Of a stretch of 64,000 nt of DNA, positions 5,571-28,122 are shown piece after piece. Numbering within the stretch: position 1 is the first letter of the stretch; every line of letters starts with the position of its first letter. The stretch covers positions 8,878 through 72,877 of the forward strand of contig JAHJLI010000039.1 in assembly GCA_018821785.1 (NCBI GenBank), given 5' to 3'. Position numbers and translations under genes: made by a program. The stretch comes from Pseudomonadota bacterium (lineage in GTDB: Bacteria > Desulfobacterota > Desulfobulbia > Desulfobulbales > Desulfocapsaceae). Below the pieces are notes generated by a model that was not told the DNA's origin, ran no database searches, and worked only from the letters and a program-made list of their open reading frames with translations.

Positions 5571-5617
5571 CTTCTTTGCCCACCTCGCTGAAAACGGTCT
5601 ATCTCACTGTTTTTATC

Positions 5618-5690: not shown

Positions 5691-6207
5691 AACAAAAGGA
5701 CAACCAAGCCCAGATACGTTAAAACCGGTATCTTGATAACAGAACGGAACTGAAGTCCCAACCAACAATTTTTTCCCTTTTTAGAGCGCTTCCGCGCAAG
5801 ATAACACTCATCGCATCTTTTAGCTTCAGTCAGGGGACTGACGAAGCCGCTTATCTACAGGCAATCTAGGACATTTGCACCAGTGTCACAACACTAGAAG
5901 CACAGGATACCACACTGAATTAACGTACCAAGTCGATTGATCCTGCCAAGTTAGTCTGTACTCTATTTTATTACTCACCTGTATGGAAAGCATATTACCC
6001 GGAATGCCGGTCTTACCGTTTTTCCTGTATGGACGTTTTCATCGCAATAGGCTTCAATCCCATAACGGAATTAGTTTGCCAAAGCCGTAAAGAAAAGATA
6101 GTCTTTTCATACTACAGGTGGCCGATTAACTCTGGGCACCAGAGTTTCCAAAATATGCCTACAAAGGCAACCTGCAACCTTGTAACCCTTCCATCAAAGG
6201 AGTAACC

Positions 6208-6756: not shown

Positions 6757-6861
6757 CCAATGGTATCGGGCCAATCCGGGCACACCATCCTGGCCGAGGA
6801 CTATGGCCTTTCAGGACCATACTCTTTCCAGTCCATTGTATTGATTTGTTCACCGCCCGCT

Positions 6862-7923: not shown

Positions 7924-7931
7924 ATATTGTC

Positions 7932-7990
7932 ACCCAACTCTGAACAGAGCGGCAGGCAGCTGTGATGGCCTGAGCGCATGCTCTTCTTCT
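7932..7990 (-). other. Weak attC-like remnant
   Basis: Minus strand ends GTTGGGT (R'-like) just upstream of rsgA; R'' side is degenerate (TAGAAG instead of YYYAAC). Confidence 0.3.
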
Positions 7991-8183
7991 ATTGATACTT
8001 TTTGAAATTGTATTTGATAGCAACTTTTGCTTTTTCTTCCGATGGAAGTGACACAAAATATTTTTTCCAGCCAGGACAAAAGTTAATGTGCCAACGCCAG
8101 AATCTTCCGGCAATTGACTTCGGCTGCTTGTCATATTTTGCTCGTAAACTGCAATTGCCACAATTATTCTCAGCCATTATCAT
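7989..8183 (-). CDS. Small Cys-containing hypothetical protein
   Basis: 64 aa; CGNC...RFWRWHINFCPGWKKY; GGAG RBS. Confidence 0.65.
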   Translation of the reverse strand: MIMAENNCGNCSLRAKYDKQPKSIAGRFWRWHINFCPGWKKYFVSLPSEEKAKVAIKYNFKKYQ

Positions 8184-8236
8184 ACTCCATTTTAAAAAAT
8201 AACCTATTAAGAGACTAAGGCATCAGAGCCCTTGCT

Positions 8237-10616: not shown

Positions 10617-13600
10617 ATGGAAAAAAACAACTACCAGAAAAGACAACGCCCTGTGCCCACCGCAACCCGGGTCCGCATCTGGGTCTATGGGAGTATTGCC
10701 GCAATTTTACTCCTGCTAGCGACGGCAATACTTGTCGTACCACGGTTCATCGATTTCACTTCGATCAAACAGAAACTCCAGGCAGTGGTCACCGAAAAGA
10801 CCGGCGGCCGGCTTCTATATCAAGAAATTGGCCTCACCTACATACCCAGGCTTGCCATTGAGCTGCGCCAGGTCACCATGGTCATCCCGGATCTGGCAGA
10901 AGGCAGAGTTGCGGCCCTGCGCATTTCACCGCAATTTCTCCCTCTGATGAGCGGCAATATTCGCCTTGCCCGACTCGAACTGGACACACCTCAGTTGAGA
11001 CTCGACCTTCTGGATCAAAAACCTCAAGAACCCCCAGCGCAACCTCTTGAATTTGAAGGGCCGGGCAAGAGCCTGGCCTTGGCCGTCGCACCGCTCGGCC
11101 AGGTGATTACCGGCCTGGAAATTCAGGTCAACAACGGCAAACTGGCGATTGCCCAGGGCAAACACAGTCTGGTTGACATTGAAGGCCTCAATCTCAGCGG
11201 CAGAGTGCAGATGGCGGGCGACAAGATGACCGCCAAAATCGATCGATTGACTCTGGAGGAACCGGCCCTGACCTTGGCCGGGGAGCTGACTTTGGCGCCA
11301 ACCACACCGGCTATCACGGTGAATATGACAGGCACCAACATTGATGTTGATGCGACCCGCAAAACCGCTCTGTCCCTGGCAGGCGACTCCACCCCCATCA
11401 AACAAATATTCGACTACCTGCGCGGCGGTAAAGTACCTCTGATCAACTTCACCTCTCATGGAGAAAACTTTTCGCAACTGGGCGATCTGAACAACATTCT
11501 GATCAAAGGACACTTGCAGGACGGCAAGGTCTCGGTCCCGGCCATCGACATCAACTTGACCGAGGTTGCCGGGGATGTGGTGATTACCAATGGCGTTCTT
11601 CAAGGTTCCGGATTGTCGGCTCACCTGGATTCATCTACCGGCCGGGACGGCACTCTTGCGATAGGGCTGACGAGAGAGCACAATCTGTTCAAGCTGGGGT
11701 TGAATTTGAGCGCCGACCTCAGCGAAACCCAAGCACTTCTCAAACGGGTGATACGTATTCCGACCTTCACTGCCGAACTGGAAAAAATCACCAACCTGCA
11801 AGGCACCGCCCACGGAAAACTCACCCTCGGCGACAGTCTGAGCAGCATCAACAGCACAGTCGAGATCGACGAACTGAGCCTGACCGCCGACTACCAGAGC
11901 TTACCTCTGCCGATCACCATCACAGAGGGACAGGTGGCCTTCAGCAAAAACCGGCTCAATCTCGGCAAGCTGGGCGGCTCAATAGGACGATCTCAGCTTG
12001 CCGATCTCTCCTGTCAGTTACTCTTTGACGAAGACCTTTCCCTCGACATCAGTTCAGGTCAATTCGAACTGGACATGGCAGAACTCTATCCCTGGCTGGC
12101 CTCCCGGGAAGGACTCCGTGAGAAGCTGCGCACGGCCAGGCAAGTGACCGGTCGAGTCGCATTGTCTACCTTGAACCTTAAAGGCAAGGTTGGCAGACCG
12201 TCCGAGTGGAAGTTCAACTCCACCGGAACGGTGCAAGACCTCGCAGTCGAGTCGGAATCCTTGCCGGACATCATCCATATCGCCAGCGGAGGGTTTAAAA
12301 TTGATACCCAGCAACTGACCTTCGAAAAACTCCAGGCCACCAACCAAGACGCAGCACTCGTCCTGTCCGGCAGACTCAGAGGCTTTCCTCAAAAGCTTGA
12401 ACGAATCGAACTCGGGCTGGATGGCTCCATGGGGCCGCAGTCGGTCGAATGGCTCTCCGCAAAACTCAAGGTGCCGACACCCTATACGATCCATGCGCCT
12501 CTCACTATCAGCAACGCACAGGTCTCCTGGCAGCCGGACGCCACCACTTCCTTCAAAGGTTTGGTACAGATAGAGAAAGGTCCTGGGATCACCGCTGATG
12601 TCGACTCTCGGCCGGACAAACTGCAGGTCAAACGACTGCATATCAAGGATCAGTACTCCGATGCCACCATGGTCTTTGACCTCAACATGGATCAACGCGA
12701 CCTCAGTTTTACCGGCACACTGCAGCACGAAACCCTGCAGGCCCTGTTCGTCGATGATCAATTCGCAAGTGGTAGAGTGGCGGGAGATTTTACCGTCACC
12801 ATCCCACAGACGGAACCAGCCGAGGTCACCACCACGGGACAGCTGACCGGCGAGAACCTGCATTTTGTCCTGTCACCGACCGACTCCGTGAATATCGCAC
12901 AGATCAACCTGCAAGCAGACGGTGCAAAAGTTACAATCGATATCAACAAACTCCAAAGCAAGAACCTTACATTGGATCCCGTTGAAGGCACAGTCTCGTT
13001 CGCTCGCGACGGGGCCGCTGTCAAGTTTGAAAGTGCCAAAGTATGCGACATCAATACACAGGGTATGTTTTCCTTTGCCGGGGATGAATTCTCCCTCGAT
13101 ATGACCCTGAAAGGGAAGGATCTCGACGTTGCTACCAGCTACACCTGCCTGACCGAGGGCCGAGTCAAGGCAACCGGCAGCCTCGATTTTTCGAGCAAAA
13201 TCACCACCAAGGGGAAAATGAACGAGCTAGTCAAGGGCCTGACGGGGCCTTTGCAGATCACGCTGAGTAACGGTGTGATCGAGCAAGACAAATTTTTTTC
13301 GAGAATCCTGGAAGTACTCAATTTCACCGAAATAGTCAAGGGACGACTGCCGGACCTCGGCGCCAACGGCCTCGCCTACACGACTATAACCCTGACAGGC
13401 AGGTTTCAGAACGGCAAGCTTCTCATCGATAAATTTTTCATGGATGGCGAGACCCTCGGCTTGGTAGGTACCGGTCAAATTCGCCTGGAAGATGAAACAC
13501 TCGATATTCAGCTGTTGGCTGCGCCATTTAAAACCGTCGACACTCTAGTAAAATACATTCCTGGGGTCAACTACCTCCTCGGCGACAGCCTGATCGCCAT

Positions 13601-13760
13601 TCCGGTCAGCATTACCGGAACCTTAGACGATCCCAATGTTACTGTTTTATCTCCTTCTGCGATCGGCTCAAGCCTCTACAACCTGGCCGAACGAACGATA
13701 ACGTCACCCCTCAAGCTGATCGAAAAAATCAACTTATGGGGGAAGGGGGATCAAGAATAA
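10617..13760 (+). CDS. AsmA-like / DUF3971 repeat beta-groove envelope protein
   Basis: 1047 aa; N-terminal TM anchor; beta-rich repeats; C-terminal GTGQIRLEDETLDI...PVSITGTLDDPNV typical of AsmA-like C-termini. Confidence 0.75.
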   Translation: MEKNNYQKRQRPVPTATRVRIWVYGSIAAILLLLATAILVVPRFIDFTSIKQKLQAVVTEKTGGRLLYQEIGLTYIPRLAIELRQVTMVIPDLAEGRVAALRISPQFLPLMSGNIRLARLELDTPQLRLDLLDQKPQEPPAQPLEFEGPGKSLALAVAPLGQVITGLEIQVNNGKLAIAQGKHSLVDIEGLNLSGRVQMAGDKMTAKIDRLTLEEPALTLAGELTLAPTTPAITVNMTGTNIDVDATRKTALSLAGDSTPIKQIFDYLRGGKVPLINFTSHGENFSQLGDLNNILIKGHLQDGKVSVPAIDINLTEVAGDVVITNGVLQGSGLSAHLDSSTGRDGTLAIGLTREHNLFKLGLNLSADLSETQALLKRVIRIPTFTAELEKITNLQGTAHGKLTLGDSLSSINSTVEIDELSLTADYQSLPLPITITEGQVAFSKNRLNLGKLGGSIGRSQLADLSCQLLFDEDLSLDISSGQFELDMAELYPWLASREGLREKLRTARQVTGRVALSTLNLKGKVGRPSEWKFNSTGTVQDLAVESESLPDIIHIASGGFKIDTQQLTFEKLQATNQDAALVLSGRLRGFPQKLERIELGLDGSMGPQSVEWLSAKLKVPTPYTIHAPLTISNAQVSWQPDATTSFKGLVQIEKGPGITADVDSRPDKLQVKRLHIKDQYSDATMVFDLNMDQRDLSFTGTLQHETLQALFVDDQFASGRVAGDFTVTIPQTEPAEVTTTGQLTGENLHFVLSPTDSVNIAQINLQADGAKVTIDINKLQSKNLTLDPVEGTVSFARDGAAVKFESAKVCDINTQGMFSFAGDEFSLDMTLKGKDLDVATSYTCLTEGRVKATGSLDFSSKITTKGKMNELVKGLTGPLQITLSNGVIEQDKFFSRILEVLNFTEIVKGRLPDLGANGLAYTTITLTGRFQNGKLLIDKFFMDGETLGLVGTGQIRLEDETLDIQLLAAPFKTVDTLVKYIPGVNYLLGDSLIAIPVSITGTLDDPNVTVLSPSAIGSSLYNLAERTITSPLKLIEKINLWGKGDQE

Positions 13761-13853
13761 TTTGGATGGGGTTAGTGAAATTGCCATAACAAACACAAGC
13801 CTGACTGAGATCTTCAGCAACTTGCTATTACTCTTGTTATGTTGCGTGTCAAC

Positions 13854-14035
13854 CTACCTTGCAGCAACGCTTTGTAACCAGTATCCTTGATCATCTCGTA
13901 TTTTGTGACATTTCGAACAGATAGGTAAAATTCCACACAAAACCTTATCTTCGCGCAAAGCCTCTTGCAGGCTATCAATCATTTTATTTTTTTCCGATTC
14001 TGCATGAATACGGCGTTGAATTTCCAGCATCATTT
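13854..14035 (-). pseudogene. Fragment of a signalling-protein C-terminal tail
   Basis: LQEALREDKVLCGILPICSKCHKIRDDQGYW resembles the tail of the 907-1515 regulator, but lacks the SHxxCPxC half and has no upstream domain. Confidence 0.65.
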
Positions 14036-14349
14036 CGTCTCTTGCGAGTATGGACACATCCCGATCATCGACAAAAATGAACGTGGCAAAGAACCGTTAC
14101 CAATGGCTCCTCATGAAGCAGAGCGCTATAAAATTCGCTCCTGTACAGAACGGGCAAATAGTCAGTTAAAAGAAGATTGCGGCGCCAACAATGTTATGGT
14201 CAAGGGCACGCAAAGGTATCTCTGCATCTGATGTTTGGAGTTATCACCTTGTTTTCAGACCAACTTCTACGACTATTTTATTAGGTTGTCAAAGATCAGA
14301 TAGGCTATCAATGAACAATTTCGAATACTGCTCATTTTGCAAAAGGCTC
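14034..14349 (+). mobile_element. IS remnant: DDE transposase C-terminal fragment with frameshift and probable right end
   Basis: GHIPIIDKNERGKEPLPMAPHEAERYKIRSCTERANSQLKED, then after a frameshift near 14212 KVSLHLMFGVITLFSDQLL (stop 14284); candidate terminal IR TTTTGCAAAAGGCTC at 14335-14349. IS family not established. Confidence 0.65.
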
Positions 14350-14594
14350 TATAATCATGCTCTTTAACCGGATTTATCTTTATTATCCCCGACTGGCTTA
14401 TCTGTCGGGACAAGAGCTGATCGTTTGGTAAAGTGGATTATTTTCCTCGGAATTTGACTTACAGATTTTGTTGGGATAAACTAGATGTACCAGTGGCAAT
14501 CTCCAACGAAAATTCCCCTTGCACTTTCCACAAACAAGTATTCCCGACCGAATTTAGAGGTGTAAATATAACAGGCACACCAAGGAGGTTTACA

Positions 14595-15650
14595 ATGATT
14601 CTTGAAAATCGTCTCATACTACAAGGATTGAAAAATGAACCATTGGTATTGCTCTCTTGTCATCTGTGGGGTCTTTTTATTTTTGTGATTCCAATATGTT
14701 GCCTGCTGCTATTGTTTTCCCCATCCGTTGAAGCCAAAAATATAAAAATCAGTATTCTTATGGCCAGCGATGTCCGTCAGCTGCCAGTGGCTGGGCTCAA
14801 GAATGCACTTGCCACCCATTCTACCGAAGAAGGCCACACCTTTAAATATGAAATTAAAAATGCTGCGGGGGATCGCAAGCAGCTTGCTACTATGGCTGCA
14901 GAGATTATTGCCGCCAAACCGGATGTGGCCATTGCCGGTGGTGGTATTGAGGCGGACGCCCTGCTCGTCGCTTCGGCAGGAACCAACATTCCGGTGGTTT
15001 TCCTCTCGGTTTCCTCCGCGGTTGAGAGGGGAATTGTTGCCAGTATGGTCAGCTCCGGCAATAATTTCACCGGAATTGATACCAACGACACCCAGCTCAC
15101 AGCCAAGCGCCTCTGGTTTATCAGAAAAATTCTCCCCGATGCCAAAAAAGTGCTTTGCTTCCATGTTCCTTCCATCGTCCCATCGAGGCAGGCACTTGCT
15201 GTCGCAAGGCTTAGCGCCAAAGAACTGGGCTTCGAGCTGCAGGTGGTTGAGGTCGAGTCGGATGCCGATATCAAACGCGCCGCAGGCGAACTGTCGAGGG
15301 CAACAACTGATGTGATTCTGCAACTCCCGGCGGCACCAACAGATAAAGCCCTGCGCCCGATAATTTTCCCCAAAGCCATGGCTGAGAAAATCCCGATCTT
15401 TGGCTATGGCGAGGCCAGCATAGACGGTGGAGCTTTTGCCTCCTACGCCGGCTCACGCTTTGCTAATGGTGAGCAGGCGGCTCGTTTGATTCACAAGATC
15501 CTCAAAGGTACAGCACCCAAAGAGATTCCTATCGAAAATCCAGAGAAACCTGAACTCATAATCAATAAAGATCTGGTGGCAAAACTCGGCATAAACCTCC
15601 CGTCCCGGGTATGGCGAATGGCTGATCAACTTGTTGATGTTCAATTTTAG
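14595..15650 (+). CDS. ABC_sub_bind-type periplasmic binding protein (no transporter partners adjacent)
   Basis: AGGAGG RBS before ATG 14595; motifs IAAKPDVAIA, NIPVVF, GNNFTG, EKIPIFG, KILKGTAPKEIPIENP...LIINKDLVAKLGINLP. Confidence 0.85.
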   Translation: MILENRLILQGLKNEPLVLLSCHLWGLFIFVIPICCLLLLFSPSVEAKNIKISILMASDVRQLPVAGLKNALATHSTEEGHTFKYEIKNAAGDRKQLATMAAEIIAAKPDVAIAGGGIEADALLVASAGTNIPVVFLSVSSAVERGIVASMVSSGNNFTGIDTNDTQLTAKRLWFIRKILPDAKKVLCFHVPSIVPSRQALAVARLSAKELGFELQVVEVESDADIKRAAGELSRATTDVILQLPAAPTDKALRPIIFPKAMAEKIPIFGYGEASIDGGAFASYAGSRFANGEQAARLIHKILKGTAPKEIPIENPEKPELIINKDLVAKLGINLPSRVWRMADQLVDVQF

Positions 15651-15720
15651 TACCTTAGAAATTCATTTCTTTTTTTAGAAAGAATTGCGTGATGGTATCT
15701 ATCCCGTTTATCGGGGTGAA
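15648..15720 (+). repeat. ~75 bp two-hairpin dispersed element, copy 3
   Basis: TAGTACCTTAGAAATTCATTTCTTTTTTTAGAAAGAATTGCGTGATGGTATCTATCCCGTTTATCGGGGTGAA; starts at the SBP stop codon and ends 15 nt before the kinase ATG. Confidence 0.8.
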
Positions 15721-15735
15721 ATATGAGAGGACACT

Positions 15736-18700
15736 ATGAAATGGTGGAATCGCTTGAGTGTCAGACTGACTGTTTTCATCCTCTTTCTGGCAATAATTCC
15801 CCTCGCCGGATTTGGCTTTACGACACTGAGGGATTTTCAACGTGTTCGTTTGCAGTCGGTTGCCCAGATCCACAAGGGCCTTGCCAACAATTCGGCCCAG
15901 TTGATTCAATCATCTCTTGCCGATATAGCACAAGTTATTAATCTGGTTGCCGAAAGCACTGAACTGGAGAGCGCAGATCCAGCCGACAAAGAATGGCTCC
16001 TGCAACTCCTGATAAAGTCGTTCCCTCATCTTAGCAGCCTCACTCTTGCTGAAATCGGTGGCCAGGAGCTGGTGAAGGTGGGCCGTGACACAGTCTATAA
16101 CCAAAAAGACCTCGGGAAACATAGTGATCACCCCGAATTTCTCAAAAAAGAAGATCACCACTCAGTAGTAGGGAAATTACATGCCGGCAGTAATAAACTT
16201 CTGCTGCTCGACTTGTATATACCCTTGTTAAGCCCGATGGACAGAAATGTTACCTCGGTTCTCGTCGCGGAAATCGACATGACAAAACTGTTGAATTTCA
16301 CCACCGGTCTGCATGTCGGAGAGACAGGATATGTATACGTTGTCAACGCCGAAGGGAAATACCTTGCTTATCCCGATCAGAGTGCAGTGTTGGCCGATGA
16401 AGACGCTCTTGAAAATCCACTGGTACAGGACTTTGTCGCCGGTCGCAAGACACTCGGCCCCAACCAGACATATTTCAACCGGTATCAAATAGAGGTGTTG
16501 AGTAACGCCAGAGTAGTGGCAGAACCAAAACTGCTGGTGGTGGTGGACCAACCCATTGAAGAAGCAATGGCGGTAGTCAATCTGATAACTAAAAGACAAA
16601 CCCTGGTACTCTTCAGTGTTCTTGTCTTCGCCCTTGTCATCTCCGTCTATTTTGCGGTCAAAATAGTTAAGCCATTGCGCTTGCTCGAATCAGGGGCAAA
16701 ACTGATTGGTGCGGGCAATCTCTCGCATAGAATTCCTGTTCACAGTTCGGATGAATTAGGAGCAGTCACCCAGTCCTTTAATGTCATGGTCGAGGACCTT
16801 CAGACGACACGCAGCACGTCCGACCAACAGAATTGGTTGAAACAGGGAATCACCGAACTTGATAGCCTCCTGCGGGGGGACAAGTCCCTGGAAGAACTGT
16901 GTACAGAAGTTGTTATTTTTATGGCCAACTATCTGCAACAACAAGCAGGGCTCATATACACCCTCGATACCAAGGGAAGATACAGGTATACAGCAGGCTA
17001 TGCCGTTCAACCTGGAACCGGGTCCTCGAGCACTTTCAAAATAGGTGAAGGACTCCCCGGTCAAGCTGCACGCGAAAAGAGAATCCTCTATCTAACAGAT
17101 ATTCCAGTTGAATATTTCTCAATCACCTCCGGTCTGGGTAACCTGCTGCCCAGGCACCTGTCAATAGTGCCATTTGTCCTTAACAACCAGGTTGAGGCGG
17201 TAATGGAACTTGGCACCCTCCATGGACTTACTGAACTGCAGAAATTATTTCTTGAGGAAACTGCCGGCGCCATCGCCATTATCCTCGCCTCCGCCCGGGC
17301 GCGGCGTGAACTGGGCGAGGCCCTCATGCAAACCAGACAACAGACCGAAGAATTGCACCGACAGCAGGAGGAACTGCAAGCCTCTAATGAAGAGATGGAA
17401 GAACAGACACAATTGCTCATGGCCTCTGAAAGTAAACTGAAAGAGCAGCAAGAGGAGCTGCAGGCAGCCAATGAAGAACTTGAGGAAAAAACTGAATACC
17501 TGGAGCGTAACAAAAAAAATATTGAAGAGAAAAATCAGGTTCTTGAGCAATTAGGTAAGGATTTGGAGAAGAAGGCCGAAGATCTTGCCATTGCCAGTAA
17601 ATACAAATCTGAATTCCTGGCGAACATGTCCCATGAACTGCGAACACCACTCAACAGCTTGCTGCTTCTCTCCCGGTTATTGGTCGATAATAAGGAAGGC
17701 AACCTCCTCGCCGAACAGGTTGAGTCAGCCGAAATCATCTATAACAGCGGCAACGACCTGCTTTCCCTGATCAATGAAATTCTTGATCTGGCAAAGATAG
17801 AGGCAGGGAAAATGGAGCTGAAACTGGCAGAGATACCTTTGGTCGAATTGCAAGATGGGCTTGCCAGAAATTTCAGAAAACTGGCAGACGAAAAGGGCCT
17901 TTCTTTCGAAGTAGCCACCCGAGAAGATTGCCCCGCCGCCATAACCAGCGACCGGCAGCGCATTGAGCAGGTATTAAAGAATTTCATCGCCAATGCCTTT
18001 AAATTTACCAATCAGGGTGGCGTAACAGTAGAGATTTGCCAACCCAAAGCAACAGTTGTCTTCTCCAGACCTGGTCTGACAAATGAAAACACCATTGCCA
18101 TAGATGTCCGCGACACCGGGATAGGCATTCCCGTAGACAAACAGAAGATCGTATTTGAAGCCTTTCAACAGCTGGAGGGCGGCACTGCCAGAAAATATGG
18201 CGGGACCGGGCTGGGGCTATCCATATCAAGAGAACTTGCCAATCTTCTTGGTGGTGAGATTCAGTTGCAGAGTGAAGAAAATATCGGTTCGACCTTCACC
18301 CTCTTTTTGCCGAAAGACGCGTCGACCATAAGCACTCCCAGGACCTCTCCCGCACCAGAGGGGACGAAAAGAGAAAGGGCTCCAGGAGTAACTGCTCTAT
18401 CTCAGCCATTTGCCGGTAAAGACGACCAGCAATCGATTAACACCGTTGCCGATGACCGAGAGACACTCGGTGCTAGCGACAAGACTGTTCTCATAATTGA
18501 GGATGATATACATTTTGCCACCACCCTTTTGCACTTCTGTAAGACCAAAGGTTTTAAGGTGCTGATTGCACTCAGCGGCGAAGAAGGCCTGAAATTTGCC
18601 GAAGAATATCAACCAAAAGCGATCATTCTCGATATCAATCTCCCTGGAATCGATGGTTGGGTGGTTCTCGAATCGCTCAAGGACAATCCTGCCACCCGTC

Positions 18701-19650
18701 ATATTCCAGTTCACTTCATGTCCGCCGATGACCCTGTTCCAGAGGCATTTTCTAAAGGTGCCATCGGCTATCTTACCAAACCGGTCAGCCAGGAAGACCT
18801 GGAACAAGCATTAGCCGTCCTTGAATCGATAATCGACAAGGATGTGAAAGATTTATTGCTCATCGAGGACAATGCTAATCAACGACAGGCTATTAGCAAA
18901 CTTGTCGGTGACCAAGACGTAGTTATCCAAGAGGTTTCTAGCGGGAAAGAGGCCATGGCAGCCCTCCGACAGAAGCATTTCGACTGTGTAATCATGGATC
19001 TGGGGCTGCCGGATATGTCAGGCTTCGAGTTGCTGAAGGCAATAGAGAAAGATCCGGGAGTAACACCTCCACCGATTATAGTCTACACCGGCAAAGAGTT
19101 GACGATCGATGAGGAATTAGAACTACGTAAATATTCAGAATCAATCATAATTAAAGGACTCCGCTCAGAGGAGAGGTTGCTTGATGAGACGTCTTTATTT
19201 CTGCATCGAATAGTTGAGAAAATGCCTGAAGAGAAAAGGCTGATGATTTCGTTGCTGCATGGTGGTGATCAAAATTTACGGGATAAAAATATCCTGATCG
19301 TCGATGACGATATGCGCAATGTCTTTGCCTTGTCGAAGGTATTACATGACAGAGGAATCAAGACCATTAAGGCGGAAAATGGCATCAAAGCACTGGAAAT
19401 ACTTAACCTGCGGCAAGATATCGATCTGGTTCTCATGGATATCATGATGCCGCAGATGGATGGCTACGAAACCATGAGAAGGATTCGTGCCCAGAGCAGA
19501 TTTGCACAACTGCCGATCATTGCCTTGACCGCCAAGGCCATGCAGCGTGATAAAGACGAATGTATTGCTGCCGGGGCCAGTGATTATCTGGCAAAACCGG
19601 TGGAAATCAATCGCCTGTTGTCTTTGATGCGCGTCTGGCTCTACAGATAG
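15736..19650 (+). CDS. Hybrid sensor kinase: Cache-like, HAMP, GAF, coiled coil, HisKA, HATPase, 3x REC
   Basis: Two TM segments; H-box FLANMSHELRTPLN; N-box KNFIANAFKFT; DTGIG; GGTGLGL; three receivers with Asp retained (ILDINLP, IMDLGLP, LMDIMMP). Confidence 0.93.
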   Translation: MKWWNRLSVRLTVFILFLAIIPLAGFGFTTLRDFQRVRLQSVAQIHKGLANNSAQLIQSSLADIAQVINLVAESTELESADPADKEWLLQLLIKSFPHLSSLTLAEIGGQELVKVGRDTVYNQKDLGKHSDHPEFLKKEDHHSVVGKLHAGSNKLLLLDLYIPLLSPMDRNVTSVLVAEIDMTKLLNFTTGLHVGETGYVYVVNAEGKYLAYPDQSAVLADEDALENPLVQDFVAGRKTLGPNQTYFNRYQIEVLSNARVVAEPKLLVVVDQPIEEAMAVVNLITKRQTLVLFSVLVFALVISVYFAVKIVKPLRLLESGAKLIGAGNLSHRIPVHSSDELGAVTQSFNVMVEDLQTTRSTSDQQNWLKQGITELDSLLRGDKSLEELCTEVVIFMANYLQQQAGLIYTLDTKGRYRYTAGYAVQPGTGSSSTFKIGEGLPGQAAREKRILYLTDIPVEYFSITSGLGNLLPRHLSIVPFVLNNQVEAVMELGTLHGLTELQKLFLEETAGAIAIILASARARRELGEALMQTRQQTEELHRQQEELQASNEEMEEQTQLLMASESKLKEQQEELQAANEELEEKTEYLERNKKNIEEKNQVLEQLGKDLEKKAEDLAIASKYKSEFLANMSHELRTPLNSLLLLSRLLVDNKEGNLLAEQVESAEIIYNSGNDLLSLINEILDLAKIEAGKMELKLAEIPLVELQDGLARNFRKLADEKGLSFEVATREDCPAAITSDRQRIEQVLKNFIANAFKFTNQGGVTVEICQPKATVVFSRPGLTNENTIAIDVRDTGIGIPVDKQKIVFEAFQQLEGGTARKYGGTGLGLSISRELANLLGGEIQLQSEENIGSTFTLFLPKDASTISTPRTSPAPEGTKRERAPGVTALSQPFAGKDDQQSINTVADDRETLGASDKTVLIIEDDIHFATTLLHFCKTKGFKVLIALSGEEGLKFAEEYQPKAIILDINLPGIDGWVVLESLKDNPATRHIPVHFMSADDPVPEAFSKGAIGYLTKPVSQEDLEQALAVLESIIDKDVKDLLLIEDNANQRQAISKLVGDQDVVIQEVSSGKEAMAALRQKHFDCVIMDLGLPDMSGFELLKAIEKDPGVTPPPIIVYTGKELTIDEELELRKYSESIIIKGLRSEERLLDETSLFLHRIVEKMPEEKRLMISLLHGGDQNLRDKNILIVDDDMRNVFALSKVLHDRGIKTIKAENGIKALEILNLRQDIDLVLMDIMMPQMDGYETMRRIRAQSRFAQLPIIALTAKAMQRDKDECIAAGASDYLAKPVEINRLLSLMRVWLYR

Positions 19651-19674
19651 ATTTTACCAGGGGAAAGAGAGTCA

Positions 19675-20499
19675 ATGAAACTGAGTGACATAGAAAACCT
19701 GGAAATTGACCTCCTGCTGGAAGCAATTTTTTTGCGATACGGCTACGACTTCAGAAGTTACGCCAGGGGCTCTATTCGTCGAAGGATTTTGCAATTCATG
19801 CAGATGACTGGAGTCGGCTCAGTTTCTGAAACGATCCCCAAAATCATTCATGATGAATCCTTTTTTCAACAAATGGCCAGGGAGTTCTCGATCACCGTGA
19901 CGGAAATGTTCAGGGATCCTCAAATGTTTTTGGCCCTCAGAAGAGAGATCGTCCCTCTCTTGAAAAGCTATCCGTATATCAAGGTCTGGCACGCCGGATG
20001 TGCCACCGGTGAGGAAGCATATTCTTTGGCGATCCTCATAGAGGAAGAAAAATTGGCGGAAAGAACCACTTTCTTTGCCACCGATTTTAATGACAATGCC
20101 CTGGAAAAGGCCAAAGAAGGTATTTTTAGTCTCGATTACGTGCAACAATACAGCCAAAACTACCAACAGGCGGGAGGCAAGATTTCATTATCCGACTATT
20201 ACCACGCCAACTACGGGGCAATGGCAATCAAGAGCGCTCTCAAAAAAAAGATCACCTTCGCCAATCACAATCTGGTAATAGACCAGGTCTTCACCGAGAC
20301 CCACCTCATTCTCTGTCGCAATGTGATGATTTATTTCAACAAAGAGCTACAAGAGAGAGTCGTTGGACTTTTCCATGAAAGCCTGGTTTACGGTGGTTTT
20401 TTATGTCTTGGGACAAAAGAAAGTCTGTTGTTTTCAAAGTATCAAAACAAGTTCAGGGAAATTGATACAAAGAACAAAATTTATCAGAAGATAGCCTGA
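19675..20499 (+). CDS. cheR: CheR-family protein-glutamate O-methyltransferase
   Basis: YGYDFRSY, SITVTEMFRDP, KVWHAGCATGEEAYSLAI, ATDFN, ILCRNVMIYF. Confidence 0.92.
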   Translation: MKLSDIENLEIDLLLEAIFLRYGYDFRSYARGSIRRRILQFMQMTGVGSVSETIPKIIHDESFFQQMAREFSITVTEMFRDPQMFLALRREIVPLLKSYPYIKVWHAGCATGEEAYSLAILIEEEKLAERTTFFATDFNDNALEKAKEGIFSLDYVQQYSQNYQQAGGKISLSDYYHANYGAMAIKSALKKKITFANHNLVIDQVFTETHLILCRNVMIYFNKELQERVVGLFHESLVYGGFLCLGTKESLLFSKYQNKFREIDTKNKIYQKIA

Positions 20500-21098
20500 T
20501 GGATAACCGCACTTACAAGGCAATAGCAATCGGCGGATCAGCGGGATCGATGGATGTGCTTTTACGACTTTTTGCATGTTTACCGAAGAAATTCAGCCTG
20601 CCGATAATTGTCGTTTGTCATCTCCACCCTTGCGATGAAGGTGGTCTTATAGAGGTTTTCACCCGTCATGCACCGCTTATCGTTAAAGAGGTTGCCGACA
20701 AAGAGCTGATACAAGCAGGCCATATTTATTTCCCCCCGGCCAATTATCATTTGCTGGTCGAGAGGGATAGAACATTTGCCCTGTCCATTGATGCCAAAGT
20801 AAATTATTCCCGTCCATCGATCGATGTCTTTTTTGAAAGTGCGGCAGCTGTCTGGGGTGATGAACTGATCGGCATAATTCTCACTGGTGCCAATAAAGAC
20901 GGGGCTGCGGGTATTCAGGTGATTAAAAAGCATGGTGGCCTGACAATTGCTCAAGATCCCAGGGAAGCAGCGTATCCGGCTATGGTGCAGGCGGCAATTG
21001 ATACTGGAGATGTTGATCAAATACTTTGCACCGAAGAAATCTGCAAGTTTCTGCAAATGCTTCCCGTCAGTTGCACCGGGCATGTAATTGAGGAATGA
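20499..21098 (+). CDS. cheB: CheB-type methylesterase (catalytic domain only, no REC)
   Basis: GGSAG (Ser), VCHL (His), SRPSIDVFF, LTGANKDG (Asp). Confidence 0.9.
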   Translation: MDNRTYKAIAIGGSAGSMDVLLRLFACLPKKFSLPIIVVCHLHPCDEGGLIEVFTRHAPLIVKEVADKELIQAGHIYFPPANYHLLVERDRTFALSIDAKVNYSRPSIDVFFESAAAVWGDELIGIILTGANKDGAAGIQVIKKHGGLTIAQDPREAAYPAMVQAAIDTGDVDQILCTEEICKFLQMLPVSCTGHVIEE

Positions 21099-23161
21099 CT
21101 CGTATGAACCGAAAACAGAAAATACTCATTGTCGACGACAAGCCGGCCAATCTGTTTAGCCTTGAAATGATTTTAAAAGAAACAGGTGCTGAAATCATAA
21201 AGGCAACCAACGGCAATGAAGCTCTTGTCGCTTCACTGAACCATGATTTTGCCATTGCTCTGCTTGATGTCGAGATGCCGAATATGGATGGCTATGAACT
21301 TGCCGAGCTCTTGCGCAGCGAGGAAAAAACTAAAGAGTTGCCGATTCTCTTTGTCTCTGCCGTCTATTCCAGCGACTACCATGTTTTCAAGGGTTATGAA
21401 GCCGGAGCCGTTGACTTTATGGTCAAACCCTACAACGCCGAGGTGTTGCTCAGCAAAGTCAGGGTCTTCCTTAAGCTGGATCTGCAGAAAAATCTTTTGA
21501 ATGAAGCGAATGCCGGACTTGCCACAACCAATGACACCCTGGAACTCCGGGTGCAGGAAAAAACCGCCGACCTCAACCGGATGCTGACTGAGCTTCGCAC
21601 AGAAATAGAGAGAAGACAACAGGCCGAAAAGGAAATTCTTAAAGCCAAAAAAGAATGGCAGGAGATCTTTGAAGCTATTGGGCATATGACCATGATCCTT
21701 GACAAGGATCATACCGTCATTGCTGCCAACAGGGCTACCGTGGAAAAAACAGGTCTGCCCCTTGAAAAAATCATCGGTCGGAAATGCCATACAATCTTCC
21801 ATAATACGCAGCAGCCATTGGCGGGTTGTCCGCTTTCGACCATGTTGCAGAAGGCCAGTTCCCAGGTGATCACCTCGGAAATTGAGGCTCTCGGAAAAAC
21901 ATTTATCGTTTCCTGTACTCCGGTATTTGATGAAAAAGGCGGATTGGAAAAGATCATCCACATCGCAACCGATATTACTGCCATTAAACACATGAAAAAG
22001 GAACTCATACAGGCCCATAAGATGGAGGCGATCGGGTCTCTCGCCGGCGGTATCGCCCATGACTTTAACAACATCCTCTCGGCAGTATTGGGGTTCACCG
22101 AGCTCTCACTGAGAAGGGTGGAGAAAGGTTCGGCGCTGGAAGAAGATTTGCATCAGATCTATACAGCAGGGATTCGGGCAAGAGATCTGGTGAAGCAGAT
22201 CCTCAATTTTGCCCGTAAAACCGATGAGAATCCAAAACCTGTTCGTATCGATCTTGTTGCCAAAGAGGTGGTCAAGTTCCTCCGTTCATCCATTGCCAGC
22301 TCCATTGAAATCACTGAAAATATTGCCAGCAGGTCTCATGTTTTGGCAAATCCCGTCAAAATACACCAGCTCTTCATGAACCTCTGCACCAATGCGGCAT
22401 TTGCCATGAACGACTCCGGCGTGTTGAAGGTATCGCTTGAGGATGTGCTCTTGACTGAAGCTGACCTGCCCTCCGACAAACCGATGCTCCCGGGCCCTTA
22501 CCAGCGCCTGGAGGTGTCGGACAACGGTTGCGGTATACCGCCGGACATCATCGACATCATTTTTCAGCCCTTTTTCACCACCAAAGGGCTCCATGAAGGC
22601 ACCGGCATGGGACTGGCGATGGTTCATACCATTGTCAAGGAATGCGTCGGCGACATCTCGGTTGCCAGTGAGGTGGGAAAAGGAACTGTCTTCACAATCC
22701 TTCTGCCGATTACGACAATGGAGGAAAAACAAGAGACGTTCAACAGCGGAGAAATCCTGCCGCAAGGCAATGAAAGGATCCTGTTGGTAGATGACGAGAT
22801 ACCAATCTGCAAGCTTGCTTCCCGGATACTCGAAGGCTATGGCTACAAGGTGACCACAGAGACCGACAGTGAAAAAGCCTTAGCCCTTTTCGCGGCGCAA
22901 CCGGATGCATTCGACTTGGTTGTGACGGATATGACCATGCCAAAAATATCAGGAAGTGAGCTGACGGAAAAGCTTCTGCAAATGCGACCTGGGCTGCCGA
23001 TTATCATTGCCACAGGGTATAGCAGAAAAATGTCGGACGCTGAGGCGCTCGAACTCGGAGCCAGATTATTTCTTGCAAAACCGTTCGAAAAAACATGCTT
23101 GGTCAGAGCGGTAAGAAAAGTTCTGGATGAAAACGGTTTGCTCAAGAACACTGAGGAATAA
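21095..23161 (+). CDS. Hybrid histidine kinase REC-PAS-HisKA-HATPase-REC
   Basis: IVDDKPANL/LLDVEMP; PAS with CH..F...C; GIAHDFNNILS; MNLCTNA; GTGMGL; C-terminal REC VVTDMTMP. Confidence 0.92.
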   Translation: MTRMNRKQKILIVDDKPANLFSLEMILKETGAEIIKATNGNEALVASLNHDFAIALLDVEMPNMDGYELAELLRSEEKTKELPILFVSAVYSSDYHVFKGYEAGAVDFMVKPYNAEVLLSKVRVFLKLDLQKNLLNEANAGLATTNDTLELRVQEKTADLNRMLTELRTEIERRQQAEKEILKAKKEWQEIFEAIGHMTMILDKDHTVIAANRATVEKTGLPLEKIIGRKCHTIFHNTQQPLAGCPLSTMLQKASSQVITSEIEALGKTFIVSCTPVFDEKGGLEKIIHIATDITAIKHMKKELIQAHKMEAIGSLAGGIAHDFNNILSAVLGFTELSLRRVEKGSALEEDLHQIYTAGIRARDLVKQILNFARKTDENPKPVRIDLVAKEVVKFLRSSIASSIEITENIASRSHVLANPVKIHQLFMNLCTNAAFAMNDSGVLKVSLEDVLLTEADLPSDKPMLPGPYQRLEVSDNGCGIPPDIIDIIFQPFFTTKGLHEGTGMGLAMVHTIVKECVGDISVASEVGKGTVFTILLPITTMEEKQETFNSGEILPQGNERILLVDDEIPICKLASRILEGYGYKVTTETDSEKALALFAAQPDAFDLVVTDMTMPKISGSELTEKLLQMRPGLPIIIATGYSRKMSDAEALELGARLFLAKPFEKTCLVRAVRKVLDENGLLKNTEE

Positions 23162-23200
23162 ATCCTCCAATCATCGTTATTTCTGAGACTCTCACACAAT

Positions 23201-26110
23201 ATGGCGCAAACACAATGTGTTGTAAAAGCGGGAATTACCTCCCTTCCCACGATCCTGAGGACGTTTATTGTCCTCCTCTGGTGCCTTGCCTCACCACCAG
23301 CAGCATATGCCGACCACCTGGCCGAGGGTCCAACACACCTCCAATCGGCAAGCGAGCTGGACTATCCACCATTTGCCATAGTCAAACCCGACGGCACCGC
23401 CGACGGTTTTTCCGTTGAACTGCTGCAGGCGGCAGTGGAAGCAGCTGGAAAAACAATTTCCTTCAAGATCGGTCCGTGGCACGAACTGAAAGAGGAACTG
23501 GCGACCGGCATACTCGATGTGTTGCCGCTGGTATCCTATTCCAAAGAACGCCATAAAATTTACGATTTTACTGCACCTTACCTGCGAATGAACGGAACAG
23601 TGTTTGTGCGCAAAAATACCACAGACATCAAGAGTATTGCCGACTTGAAGGGCAAAGAAGTGCTGGTTATGAAGGGGGACACCGCCCACGAATATGTGGT
23701 CCAGGAAAATCTGACCGATAAGATTTTCCCGACAGTTTCCTATGACGAGGCATTCCAACGGTTGGCACAAGGACAGCATGATGCGGTTGTCGTACAGCAA
23801 CTCGTAGGACTGCAGATGCTCAAAAAATTACATATCGACAATGTGGTGGCCGTTGCAAGCAAAGGTATTGGCACTCTGAAACCGGTTGCATTACGACTTG
23901 ACGGCTTCGAACAGAATTTCTGCTTTGCAGTGAAGGAAGGCAACCATGAGTTGCTCTCACAGCTCAATGAGGGTCTGGCGGTTCTTTACCTGAATGGCAC
24001 CTACGAGGCCCTTTACAAAAAGTGGTTCTGGCCGATTTTGCCACCACTTGAACACTCTTTGTGGCAAATTATTAAGGAATTATTGTTCATACTGGTTCCT
24101 CTTCTTCTCATCTTGTCGTTATTGGTGATGTGGTACCTGAAACGGCTAGTGTCCCAAAAGACCATGCATCTCGAAGAAGAAATCAAAAGGCGTAAACGCA
24201 TCGAAATTTCGCTGGAAGAAGCCAACGCCAATTATATTAAAGCCCAGGCAATCGGCAGGGTGGGAAATTGGACATATGACATTGCCACAAACACATTTTT
24301 GGGTTCCGCCGAAACCAGAAGGATCTTTGGTTTCGATAGCCATTCTTCATCCTTGAGTCTCGAGGCGGTGGAAGCCTGTATTCGCGAAAGAGACAGAGTT
24401 CATCAAGCCCTCATTGATCTCATTGAAAAAGGCACTTCTTACAATTTGGAATTTGAAATAATCACCCAGAATACTGCGCAGGTGCGGGCTGTTAAAGCAC
24501 GGGCGGAGCTCAGTTATAATTCCTTGGGAAAACCACAGGTGGTCAATGGTATACTCCAGGATATTACAGAGCAAAAACTAGTTGCCGAAGCATTGCAAGA
24601 GAGTGAGAGATTTCTTAGAGAAGTGGGCGCCATAGCCCGAATTGGCGGTTGGGAACATGACCTGATAGCCCGCACTGCCAGATGGACTGAAGAAACATTC
24701 AAAATTGTCGAGATGGAAGCGGGACCTGTGCCCGGCCCCGATGAGCATTTGAGCTATTATCCAGCGGAAGACAGGGCTATTCTTGAAAAAGAATATCGAC
24801 AAGCAATGAAAACCGGCAAAAAGTTTGATCTTGAACTTCAAGGTAATACAAGCAAAGGGAGATTGATTTGGGTTCGAGTCATTGGACACCCGGTATTCAA
24901 TGATGGAAAATGTGTCAAGATGCGAGGTACCTTTCAGGACATTACCGACAAAAAACGCATGCTGGAGAATATGCTGCAGTCCCAGAGACTGGAATCAATT
25001 GGTGTGCTTGCTGGAGGAATATCACATGATTTCAACAACATATTAAGCGCAATCCTGGGTTTCACTGAACTTGCCCTGGAGAATGAATCGGCAAATTCAC
25101 AACTGCGGGATGATCTGCAAGAAATTTACGCAGCAGGCCGCAGGGCCAAGGAACTGGTTCAACAAATTCTCACCTTCAGCCGTGAAAAGTATCAGACTCC
25201 TTGCCCGCTCAGCGTCCCGGTCATTGTCAACGACGCAGTGAGGCTTCTCCGGGCAACATTTCCAGCAACTATTTCTATGGTAATTGATGCTGAGGAAAAT
25301 GTGCGCCCTGTTCTGGCAGATCCTATACAACTTCAACAGGCCATAATGAATATCTGCACCAATGCCTGCCAGGCGATGGAAGGAAAAGGAGGGGCTTTGA
25401 CAATAAAGGTGCAAGAAACGGTGGCTTCGGAGAGCTTGCTCGAAGAACAACCGCATCTCAGCCCCGGCGCATATATTGCGTTGAAAATTCAGGATACCGG
25501 CATTGGTATCATGGCAGAGAGACTCGGTTTAATTTTTGACCCCTACTTCACCACCAAACATTTAGGGGATGGTACAGGACTTGGTCTGGCGGTGACCTAT
25601 GGGATTGTCCGGGAAATGAGAGGGGCTATAATTGTTGAGTCGGAACCGGGACAGGGGAGTATCTTTACCGTCTTCCTGCCGGTTGTCGATCAGGAACTGC
25701 GGGAAATCCCTTCCGCCGACCCGGAGACCCCCTGTCTACCTGGCGGAACCGAACGTATCCTGATTGTTGACGATGAGTTGCCAATTCTCAAACTTACCTC
25801 AAGGGTGTTGGAAGAACATGGCTATACGGTAACAACAGCGGAAAATGGCGTGGTGGCACTTGAGAAATTCAAAAACGACCCTCAGGCCTATGATCTGGTT
25901 ATCAGCGATGTCAGTATGCCAACACTCTCCGGAGACCAGCTGGCGAAGGCGATGCTGACTATCCGCCCTGATTTACCCATACTTCTTGCCAGCGGTTACA
26001 GTAAGACGGTCACGGAAGAAACAGCTTTGCAAGACGGAGTGAAGGGTTTGTTGCAGAAACCGGTTTCCGAGGAAAGTTTATTGCGAGCAGTGCGACAGGT
26101 TCTGCCATGA
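23201..26110 (+). CDS. Hybrid histidine kinase with N-terminal SBP_bac_3 sensor, 2x PAS, HisKA, HATPase, REC
   Basis: DYPPFAI...DGFSVELL (PBPb); TM; two IGxWxxD PAS starts; GISHDFNNILS; VISDVSMP. Confidence 0.92.
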   Translation: MAQTQCVVKAGITSLPTILRTFIVLLWCLASPPAAYADHLAEGPTHLQSASELDYPPFAIVKPDGTADGFSVELLQAAVEAAGKTISFKIGPWHELKEELATGILDVLPLVSYSKERHKIYDFTAPYLRMNGTVFVRKNTTDIKSIADLKGKEVLVMKGDTAHEYVVQENLTDKIFPTVSYDEAFQRLAQGQHDAVVVQQLVGLQMLKKLHIDNVVAVASKGIGTLKPVALRLDGFEQNFCFAVKEGNHELLSQLNEGLAVLYLNGTYEALYKKWFWPILPPLEHSLWQIIKELLFILVPLLLILSLLVMWYLKRLVSQKTMHLEEEIKRRKRIEISLEEANANYIKAQAIGRVGNWTYDIATNTFLGSAETRRIFGFDSHSSSLSLEAVEACIRERDRVHQALIDLIEKGTSYNLEFEIITQNTAQVRAVKARAELSYNSLGKPQVVNGILQDITEQKLVAEALQESERFLREVGAIARIGGWEHDLIARTARWTEETFKIVEMEAGPVPGPDEHLSYYPAEDRAILEKEYRQAMKTGKKFDLELQGNTSKGRLIWVRVIGHPVFNDGKCVKMRGTFQDITDKKRMLENMLQSQRLESIGVLAGGISHDFNNILSAILGFTELALENESANSQLRDDLQEIYAAGRRAKELVQQILTFSREKYQTPCPLSVPVIVNDAVRLLRATFPATISMVIDAEENVRPVLADPIQLQQAIMNICTNACQAMEGKGGALTIKVQETVASESLLEEQPHLSPGAYIALKIQDTGIGIMAERLGLIFDPYFTTKHLGDGTGLGLAVTYGIVREMRGAIIVESEPGQGSIFTVFLPVVDQELREIPSADPETPCLPGGTERILIVDDELPILKLTSRVLEEHGYTVTTAENGVVALEKFKNDPQAYDLVISDVSMPTLSGDQLAKAMLTIRPDLPILLASGYSKTVTEETALQDGVKGLLQKPVSEESLLRAVRQVLP

Positions 26111-26160
26111 CCTGACAGAAACAACTTGCACACAATCTCTCCCAATTTATAGAAAAAAAC

Positions 26161-27771: not shown

Positions 27772-28122
27772 AAGAAACCCCAGGGCTGGTCGTTCACATG
27801 TCCGAACAGGACCAAAATCCGTAGTCACACGACAAAAATCACTACTCTGCGCAAACCCATTACCAGTAATGGTAACAGCCGATTTGTGAACTTACTGCCC
27901 GCAAACGTAGGAAAAATATCTGTTCCTTTTTTTCTTTTAACTGCGAAAATACTATGTCAAGAAATTGAGCTGGAATTACTTGTAAGGGAAAAAGAAGATA
28001 GGTACTGATTTATGATGGAGGCATAGCTACTATCCAGTGTAAGAGATGTCTCTGGGAAAAATAAATCAACGGCACTATACGGTTTGGCTGAGATGCTTCC
28101 TCATTCTTTTCAGATCGTTGTA

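Follow-up and report, generated by a model that had tools for sequence, protein, structure and literature searches.

A putative methyl-accepting histidine kinase with a predicted binding-protein input, encoded in a seven-gene signalling operon

Introduction

In textbooks, bacterial sensory adaptation is explained by the reversible methylation of glutamates, a mechanism that is understood almost only for chemoreceptors. The locus described here raises the question of whether a two-component histidine kinase can be adjusted in the same manner. The stretch of DNA analysed (hereafter, the window) is 64,000 nucleotides long and corresponds to positions 8878–72877 of contig JAHJLI010000039.1 (C72 in what follows), from a 5.47 Mb, 94% complete assembly (GCA_018821785.1) of a bacterium of the sulfate-reducer type whose closest relatives are Desulfobacterales. 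Within the window, a gene for a solute-binding protein (SBP) is followed by genes for a large hybrid histidine kinase (HK1), a CheR-type methyltransferase and a CheB-type methylesterase. An earlier note on this DNA proposed that the binding protein delivers ligand to the sensor domain of the kinase, and that methylation tunes the kinase itself. On the basis of sequence comparison, we think it probable that the locus is a seven-gene signalling operon built around an RsbK/CfcA-type histidine kinase that accepts methyl groups and takes its input from a binding protein.

The earlier note described clusters of kinase, cheR and cheB genes as poorly characterised. This understates the literature: the biochemistry of one such enzyme and kinase, RsbM and RsbK, has been reported (PMC4574943), and the gene order has been named, as cfcABCDE (PMC4951495). 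In Bacillus cereus, the CheR-type enzyme RsbM methylates RsbK in vitro (purified proteins, 14C-labelled S-adenosylmethionine); RsbK has the architecture CHASE3-HAMP-GAF-S-helix-HK-REC, and the methylated element is the S-helix, or signalling helix (PMC4574943). Methylation of the S-helix holds RsbK off and represses signalling (PMC4574943; also PMC12848376), and 127 RsbK-like kinases have been reported in 10 phyla (PMC4574943). In Pseudomonas putida, the CHASE3/GAF hybrid kinase CfcA is followed by a CheR/CheB pair (cfcB/cfcC) for which involvement in chemotaxis was excluded; CfcA activates the diguanylate cyclase CfcR, an orphan REC-GGDEF/EAL regulator (PMC4951495, PMC6849547). The bmsA cluster of Pseudomonas brassicacearum has the order kinase-CheR-CheB-kinase (PMC8175716).

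Results

Organization of the SBP-HK1-CheR-CheB unit

A listing of open reading frames (ORFs) and Pfam scans place the SBP, HK1, CheR and CheB genes, and that of a second kinase (HK2), on the + strand of the window. The genes and the parts of HK1, including its transmembrane segments (TM1 and TM2) and receiver (REC) domains, are as follows.

14595–15650, + strand: SBP, family PF04392 (ABC_sub_bind), 351 aa (Pfam E = 3.6e-51)
15736–19650, + strand: HK1, hybrid histidine kinase, 1304 aa (Pfam, translation, orthologues in 16 loci)
15766–15828, + strand: TM1 of HK1
15829–16602, + strand: predicted periplasmic dCache domain of HK1, aa 32–289 (AlphaFold2 model, Foldseek)
16603–16659, + strand: TM2 of HK1
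16660–17286, + strand: HAMP (aa 309–356; Pfam E = 1.6e-13) and GAF (aa 383–517; GAF_2, E = 1.6e-11) domains of HK1
17290–17607, + strand: S-helix of HK1, a coiled coil, aa 519–624 (sequence)
17362–17403, + strand: candidate methylation site 1, QQEELQASNEEMEE, aa 543–556 (sequence motif)
17446–17487, + strand: candidate methylation site 2, QQEELQAANEELEE, aa 571–584 (sequence motif)
17605–18318, + strand: HisKA (H-box SHELRTP, His633) and HATPase_c domains of HK1 (Pfam E = 1.6e-18 and 9.1e-27, respectively)
18472–19626, + strand: three REC domains of HK1, at about aa 913–1030, 1038–1155 and 1186–1297 (Pfam Response_reg, E = 5.2e-67, three stretches)
19675–20499, + strand: CheR, 274 aa, kinase-linked subfamily (Pfam CheR, E = 3.2e-40, plus CheR_N)
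20499–21098, + strand: CheB, 199 aa, receiver-less (Pfam CheB_methylest, E = 8.1e-52, full length)
21095–23161, + strand: HK2, REC-PAS-HisKA-HATPase-REC (Pfam)

The genes are closely packed: the SBP and HK1 genes are separated by 85 nt, cheR starts 24 nt past the HK1 stop codon, and the next two junctions are stop/start overlaps (TGATG between cheR and cheB, ATGA between cheB and HK2). The linkage of the four genes claimed in the earlier note is borne out by ORFs, Pfam matches, coordinates and this tight or translational coupling. The same holds for its remark that the window is free of methyl-accepting chemotaxis proteins (MCPs), CheA and CheW: no match to MCPsignal (PF00015) or to the CheW domain (PF01584) was obtained within the window.

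HK1 consists of TM1, a periplasmic domain of ~258 aa, TM2, HAMP, GAF, a 105-aa coiled coil, HisKA, HATPase_c and three REC domains, in each of which a candidate acceptor Asp is visible by eye. The Pfam dCache_1 match of HK1 (35.5 bits) falls below the 45-bit cut-off, and Pfam gives no CHASE3 match. The periplasmic domain models as a dCache fold: an AlphaFold2 model built from an alignment of 17 orthologous sensor domains (mean predicted local distance difference test score, pLDDT, 85.3; predicted template modelling score, pTM, 0.81) has as its best Foldseek matches in the PDB exclusively dCache ligand-binding domains of chemoreceptors and kinases, with E values from 1.8e-11 to 1e-8.

The gene set is conserved through rearrangement

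Homologues of the SBP (43–74% identity) are common in Desulfobacterales-type genomes and metagenomes. Twenty-three SBP-homologue loci were fetched with up to 10-kb flanks and annotated. In 16 of them, an HK1 orthologue of identical domain order lies immediately downstream of the SBP gene and cheR is adjacent as well, with cheB where the contig allows; the one further HK1-orthologue locus, without an adjacent cheR, is L017 (see below). HK2 is present after cheB or HK1 in 14 of the 16, the contig ending first in the other two. The gene-neighbourhood survey suggested by the earlier note thus finds the SBP, HK1, CheR and CheB together in 16 other genomes, and adds HK2 to the set. Two gene orders occur: SBP-HK1-CheR-CheB-HK2, and CheR-CheB-SBP-HK1-HK2 (L014, L015, L016 and L020). 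That the same members are kept through this rearrangement argues for a functional linkage between them.

Named carriers of the unit include Desulfobacula, Desulfobacterium, Desulforhopalus, Desulfobacter curvatus, and metagenome-assembled genomes (MAGs) of Desulfuromonadaceae and Methylococcales; Desulforhopalus sp. IMCC35007 and Desulfobacter curvatus DSM 3379 are cultured. An HK1 orthologue occurs in just two of 20 species genomes of the window's own genus (the source genome included), and the distribution is therefore patchy. HK1 orthologues in other families have sensor domains that are 48–61% identical. The module has either been horizontally transferred or been frequently lost.

Two of the fetched loci have unusual layouts. 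On a contig of Candidatus Desulfobacula maris (L001, 17–14925), kinase-CheR(-CheB) modules occur as a tandem pair; the copies are separated by four further kinase/receiver genes and one small, unassigned ORF, and the SBP gene precedes the second copy. At L020 (8383–15603), the module appears to be in pieces: one reading frame joins the C-terminus of the SBP to dCache-HAMP-GAF, and the kinase and the receivers are spread over separate short ORFs. Either the copy is decaying, or the break-up is an artefact of assembly or of a frameshift.

Candidate methylation sites on the signalling helix of HK1

If HK1 is a substrate of the adjacent enzymes, where might it be methylated? Between the GAF domain and the H-box lie two near-identical sites, four heptads apart, with the pattern QQEELQA[AS]NEE[LM]EE. 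Their heptads have Leu at position d, Asn, Gln or Thr at position a, and Glu pairs at positions b and c. The classical MCP methylation consensus is Glu-Glu-X-X-Ala-Ser/Thr, and the EELQAS of site 1 fits it. The core of site 2, EEL-x3-NEELEE, is kept in all CheR-linked orthologues, and in most close orthologues the signalling helix as a whole is the best conserved segment of HK1 (77–84% identity).

The motif was then sought in the 7669 six-frame ORFs of the source genome. In its strict form, with small residues before the Asn, it is found only in HK1 and in two proteins in which CheB and CheR are fused; a third such fusion has an array of closely similar heptads immediately behind its CheR domain. 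As EE[LF]xxxNEE[LMIVF] with small residues before the Asn, the motif is confined to HK1 and these three fusions. The three CheB-CheR fusions are encoded at C308:27959–32353 (+ strand, 1464 aa), C149:20440–23550 (+ strand, 1036 aa) and C132:16830–19658 (− strand, 942 aa). Each has a tandem array of such NEEL-type heptads (e.g., NEELETSNEELKSSNEEMQSVNEELQSTNEEL) immediately behind CheR, with PAS-like regions after it, and one of the three also has a kinase and a receiver. These arrays may serve the fusion enzymes as their own substrate helix. A looser DNA pattern adds one match, EELEELNEEL on contig C243, which has no link to CheR or CheB. Single matches with polar or charged residues before the Asn (EELQRQNEEL, EELKRHNEEL) occur in unrelated proteins that have neither CheR nor CheB, and were treated as chance coiled-coil matches.

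Across the phylum, a back-translated EEL-x3-NEE[L/M] DNA pattern has matches in 117 of 301 sampled genomes, while a reversed-pattern control has almost none. Sixty of the motif loci were fetched for gene context. CheB-CheR fusions, with 2–7 tandem heptads each, account for 22 of the 60, and cheR and/or cheB lie adjacent to nine of 11 motif-bearing GAF-kinases. One of the two exceptions is cut by the end of its contig; the other is weighed in the Discussion.

A natural control is provided by L017, from a Desulfamplus MAG. Here the HK1 orthologue, SBP and HK2 are kept, and no CheR or CheB is encoded within 10 kb on either side. The helix of this orthologue reads QQAELQSVNEELEE at site 1 and KHEALEQSNIELEE at site 2, with the leading Glu-Glu pair broken in both. 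This genome does encode a CheR of the kinase type (49% identical) and a CheB at another place, beside a different GAF-kinase whose two sites are intact (QQEELQATNEELEA and QQEELRVTNEELES). This single case is as expected if Glu pairs persist only where a neighbouring CheR/CheB pair uses them as substrates.

At a further motif locus (L055; G051:C29), an ORF of 2219 aa at 1559–8218 (− strand) contains three EEL-x3-NEEL motifs (EELRIANEEL, EELRISNEEL and EELQVINEEL). Similarity probes gave no kinase, CheR or CheB in the protein or nearby.

CheR belongs to a kinase-linked clade

The CheR of the operon scores 139 bits against PF01739, as compared with about 185–218 bits for most MCP-linked CheRs of related genomes. 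A maximum-likelihood tree was built from 87 CheR sequences labelled by gene context. All kinase-linked CheRs fall into one clade (support 100/100; stem length 1.34), the sister of which comprises the CheR domains of CheB-CheR fusions (100/99); 20 MCP-linked CheRs lie apart from both. Since the two clades associated with NEEL-type helices are sisters and the MCP-linked sequences stand apart, the former are related to each other and distinct from the chemotaxis CheRs. The accompanying CheB consists of a methylesterase domain only, with residues that align with the catalytic Ser, His and Asp positions (GGSAG, CH, KDG) of the genome's other CheB domains. As it has no receiver, it is probably constitutively active.

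One might nevertheless read CheR and CheB as an ordinary chemoreceptor adaptation pair that serves some of the genome's MCPs and lies among kinase genes by chance, with the kinase itself unmethylated. The genome encodes 13 MCPs and several CheA and CheW proteins, none of them inside the window, and the catalytic domains of CheR and CheB are intact and of the chemotaxis type. Moreover, a CheW-CheA-CheW-CheY-like cluster (CheA of 1151 aa) lies on the minus strand of the same contig at C72:80333–85553, ~8 kb past the end of the window and ~51 kb from cheB. The cluster is cut by the contig end at 85867, and C72 provides it with no CheR, CheB or MCP of its own. Against this reading, a partial CheR adjoins a CheW where contig C151 begins, which may be the continuation of the C72 cluster, and two further chemosensory clusters (C269 and C204) each have a receiver-containing CheB, that on C269 with a full CheR and that on C204 with only a weak CheR-like match. 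In addition, (i) the CheR sits in a separate, strongly supported clade whose members all adjoin GAF-kinases, (ii) the five-gene unit is conserved through a change of gene order and across families, without any MCP, (iii) where no CheR and CheB are encoded, the Glu-Glu motif has decayed, and (iv) the P. putida homologues are reported to have no role in chemotaxis (PMC4951495). We regard a chance association with an MCP-directed pair as improbable.

A second possibility is that CheR and CheB act within the operon on something other than the HK1 signalling helix: HK2, the downstream kinases HK3 and HK4 (described below), the SBP, or a receiver domain. HK2 is conserved like HK1 and its start overlaps the cheB stop codon, and a paralogue of HK4 adjoins a CheB-CheR fusion gene elsewhere in the genome. 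However, HK2, HK3 and HK4 are devoid of NEEL-type heptads and have few matches to [EQ][EQ]xx[ASTG][ASTG], none of which lies in a coiled coil; the motif co-varies with CheR/CheB only in HK1-type GAF-kinases; and the methylated element of RsbK is the S-helix of a GAF-kinase (PMC4574943). Another target within the operon thus appears very improbable, and HK1 itself is very probably the one that is methylated. The proposal of the earlier note that methylation tunes the kinase is well supported by comparison, through the conserved Glu-Glu sites, the dedicated CheR clade, and the decay of the sites where CheR and CheB have been lost.

The binding protein is linked to sensors rather than to a transporter

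What, then, is the role of the SBP? Its start codon (ATG at 14595) is preceded by a Shine-Dalgarno sequence, AAGGAGG, and its N-terminus is a hydrophobic, signal-peptide-like segment ending in SVEA, followed by K. A longer, GTG-initiated ORF (from 14433) was rejected, because the ATG has a strong ribosome-binding site and fits the length of the orthologues (338–354 aa). The SBP has relatives in the PDB (3LKV, 3LFT and 6HNI), and the three solved PF04392 structures contain L-Trp, L-Tyr or L-Phe as ligand; no ligands other than aromatic amino acids are known for the family. Against the TrpX equivalog the SBP scores 124 bits, far under the cut-off of 390 bits, so aromatic amino acids are no more than candidate ligands for it.

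All fetched SBP relatives of at least 38% identity with downstream DNA on the contig are encoded directly upstream of a membrane sensor protein, the sensor domain of which is detectably HK1-like in 18 of 21 cases. No PF02653-type permease is encoded in the window, or within ~10 kb (less at contig ends) of any of the 23 SBP loci. The adjacency of SBP and sensor also occurs at loci without CheR/CheB and in other phyla (Anaerolineales, L019; Bacillota, L022), which indicates that the stable partnership is that between the SBP and the dCache sensor.

These observations bear on a reading in which the SBP is a transport component, merely co-transcribed with HK1, that serves either the one PF04392-type ABC transporter of the genome (on contig C170) or an undetected one, while the dCache domain senses a small ligand of its own. 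PF04392 is indeed a family of transporter binding proteins, with solved members that bind aromatic amino acids; the genome does have one cognate permease/ATPase pair; the assembly is only 94% complete; and dCache domains usually bind ligand directly, the Foldseek matches of HK1 being ligand-bound domains. Yet the C170 permease, the single PF04392-linked permease of the genome, comes with an ATPase and with a binding protein encoded next to it that is just 26% identical to the SBP, and a tblastn search with that permease found no second copy in the 94% complete assembly. The constant presence of a downstream sensor and absence of a nearby permease among relatives, including those without CheR/CheB and in other phyla, also speak against a transport role. 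So does a natural fusion in the same genome, where a PF04392 paralogue is joined to a kinase (C101:33212–36205); two more signalling-linked paralogues precede a GGDEF diguanylate cyclase (C14:16888–19183) and a hybrid kinase (C102:21405–25050), respectively. We consider a transport role for the SBP unlikely.

The gene contexts suggest, instead, that the SBP is very probably a co-receptor of HK1, of the LuxP/LuxQ kind. In LuxP/LuxQ, TorT/TorS and ChvE/VirA, the binding protein attaches to the sensor in liganded form and does not give up its ligand; the periplasmic domain of LuxQ has a tandem-PAS (dCache-like) fold, and binds LuxP rather than the ligand. By analogy, the SBP most likely docks on the HK1 sensor instead of handing over its ligand. 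The earlier idea that the SBP feeds the kinase thus holds as far as the link between the two is concerned (an adjacent sensor gene and no permease in the loci surveyed), while delivery of ligand to the Cache domain finds no support in the characterised sensors. Covariation of evolutionary rates between the SBP and the dCache domain was dropped as evidence of interaction, since co-variation with phylogeny is common to every part of the operon.

The operon extends to three further kinases

The unit was taken by the earlier note to end at 21098, which is too short by three kinases. The operon comprises seven genes (14595–27771, + strand), with HK2 followed by two more:

23201–26110, + strand: HK3, SBP_bac_3-PAS-HK-REC (Pfam)
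26161–27771, + strand: HK4, REC-HisKA-HATPase, last gene of the operon (Pfam)

HK2 is the likely phospho-acceptor of HK1. HK3 and HK4 are variable accessory members that are not conserved at other loci. A periplasmic SBP_bac_3 domain of the amino-acid type is covalently fused into HK3, and constitutes a second binding-protein-type input in the operon. A REC-HK paralogue of HK4 (53% identical) is encoded at C149:18311–20278 (− strand), divergently beside the C149 CheB-CheR fusion gene, which hints that REC-kinases of the HK4 type may be recurrent partners of methylation modules.

The genes neighbouring the operon are unrelated to it, and encode a pseudouridine synthase, an AsmA/YhdP-like protein, a flavodoxin-like protein and a D-Ala-D-Ala carboxypeptidase. 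Promoter and terminator scans of 13600–28400 gave counts near shuffled expectation and were not used. NCBIfam gave sub-threshold matches only for all five core proteins.

Discussion

Taken together, the comparisons favour a working model in which the exported SBP would capture a periplasmic solute and, once liganded, dock on the dCache domain of HK1 as LuxP docks on LuxQ. Judging by domain order, the signal would pass through TM2, HAMP and GAF into the long parallel coiled coil of the S-helix, which would set the autophosphorylation of His633. The comparative evidence and the precedent of RsbK and RsbM suggest that the dedicated CheR would methylate Glu pairs at the two helix sites, and the receiver-less CheB would remove the methyl groups. 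The set-point of HK1 would thereby be tuned reversibly, as in chemoreceptor adaptation, without MCP, CheA or CheW. From HK1, phosphate would pass out via the three receivers of that kinase, be transferred to the N-terminal receiver of HK2, or both, and then enter a multikinase relay of HK2, HK3 and HK4, with the final output presumably encoded outside the operon.

Of the known systems, RsbK and RsbM resemble this arrangement in that HK1 also has HAMP, GAF, S-helix, HisKA, HATPase and C-terminal REC domains, with a CheR-type gene in its operon. They differ in three respects. Firstly, the RsbK sensor is CHASE3, with no binding protein, whereas HK1 has a dCache sensor and a PF04392 SBP. Secondly, RsbM is an orphan with no paired esterase, while the HK1 operon includes a receiver-less CheB, the presence of which implies that the modification should be reversible. 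Thirdly, RsbK has a single receiver and passes its signal to RsbY, a REC-PP2C protein, whereas HK1 has three receivers and a REC-PAS kinase partner, HK2; Pfam scans detected no RsbY-type REC-PP2C or sigma-B partner-switch genes in the operon or the scanned flanking genes.

With cfcABCDE and bmsA the operon shares its gene order, HK1-CheR-CheB-HK2, and a first kinase that is a GAF-containing multisensor hybrid (PMC4951495, PMC8175716, PMC6849547). CfcA differs from HK1 in its CHASE3 sensor and in the lack of a binding-protein gene. No CfcR-type REC-GGDEF/EAL gene is present among the Pfam-scanned genes around the operon, the only part of the genome in which one was sought. We know of no demonstration that CfcA is methylated.

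The placing of an SBP gene without transporter genes next to a membrane sensor kinase gene recalls LuxP/LuxQ, TorT/TorS and ChvE/VirA. LuxP, TorT and ChvE nevertheless belong to families other than PF04392, none of these systems has CheR/CheB adaptation, and the interaction of the SBP with HK1 is a prediction. MCP adaptation, as in Tar with maltose-binding protein, shares an optional binding-protein input, HAMP, a coiled coil with EEXXA(S/T) sites, and CheR plus CheB. The HK1 operon, by contrast, has no MCP signalling domain, CheA or CheW, and its CheB has no receiver, from which it follows that there is no CheA-driven feedback. Furthermore, the methyl-accepting helix of HK1 would be a parallel S-helix feeding HisKA, unlike the antiparallel four-helix bundle of an MCP. 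The CheB-CheR fusions, finally, have the same NEEL-type heptads directly after CheR, and CheR domains that are sister to the kinase-linked CheRs. In contrast to HK1, with its two spaced sites, they combine enzymes and presumed substrate helix (2–7 tandem heptads) in one polypeptide, and they have neither dCache nor binding-protein input.

A number of points weigh against a methyl-accepting HK1 with binding-protein input. On the side of methylation, site 1 is not constant among the CheR-linked orthologues (L005 and L008 have KELQAF, and L013 lacks the site), and a GAF-kinase fragment at L024 has two motifs with no CheR or CheB within 6 kb, making it a genuine exception to the association. The L017 control is one case, in which the other CheR/CheB pair of that genome could act in trans, and the 13 MCPs of the source genome could in principle be reached by its CheR. 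The likeness to RsbK, RsbM and CfcA is drawn from domain order and gene order. On the input side, the proposed contact between SBP and dCache domain rests on synteny only, and the dCache domain might bind a ligand of its own. On the output side, the operon encodes no Hpt domain or output regulator, and the downstream path is guesswork.

Relative to the known methylatable kinases, what appears to be new here is the input of a PF04392 SBP and dCache domain, combined with the presence of both CheR and CheB; this is not a new kind of system. A bolder interpretation, which we offer tentatively and hold to be rather doubtful, is that the operon encodes a complete chemoreceptor-style sensor inside a two-component kinase. 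Its elements would be (i) an SBP that signals ligand, (ii) a dCache-HAMP-GAF transmitter, (iii) a portable methyl-accepting helix of NEEL heptads, (iv) a CheR from a kinase-specific clade, and (v) a receiver-less CheB. Together they would give the phosphorelay genuine sensory adaptation, in the sense of remembering earlier ligand levels, with no MCP, CheA or CheW involved, and the same helix would be the self-substrate of the widespread CheB-CheR fusions. If true, one methyl-accepting element would be common to two large, uncharacterised protein classes.

RsbK and RsbM show that a CheR-like enzyme can methylate a histidine kinase, but adaptation cannot be studied in that system, as it has no esterase or known ligand. 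The SBP-dCache variant has both enzymes and an input protein whose family's solved members bind defined small molecules, and it is present in cultured strains; it would therefore be a practical choice for testing whether a two-component kinase shows adaptation when a stimulus persists. More broadly, the recurrent pairing of PF04392 proteins with dCache sensors suggests that many binding proteins annotated as belonging to "orphan transporters" may really be receptors.

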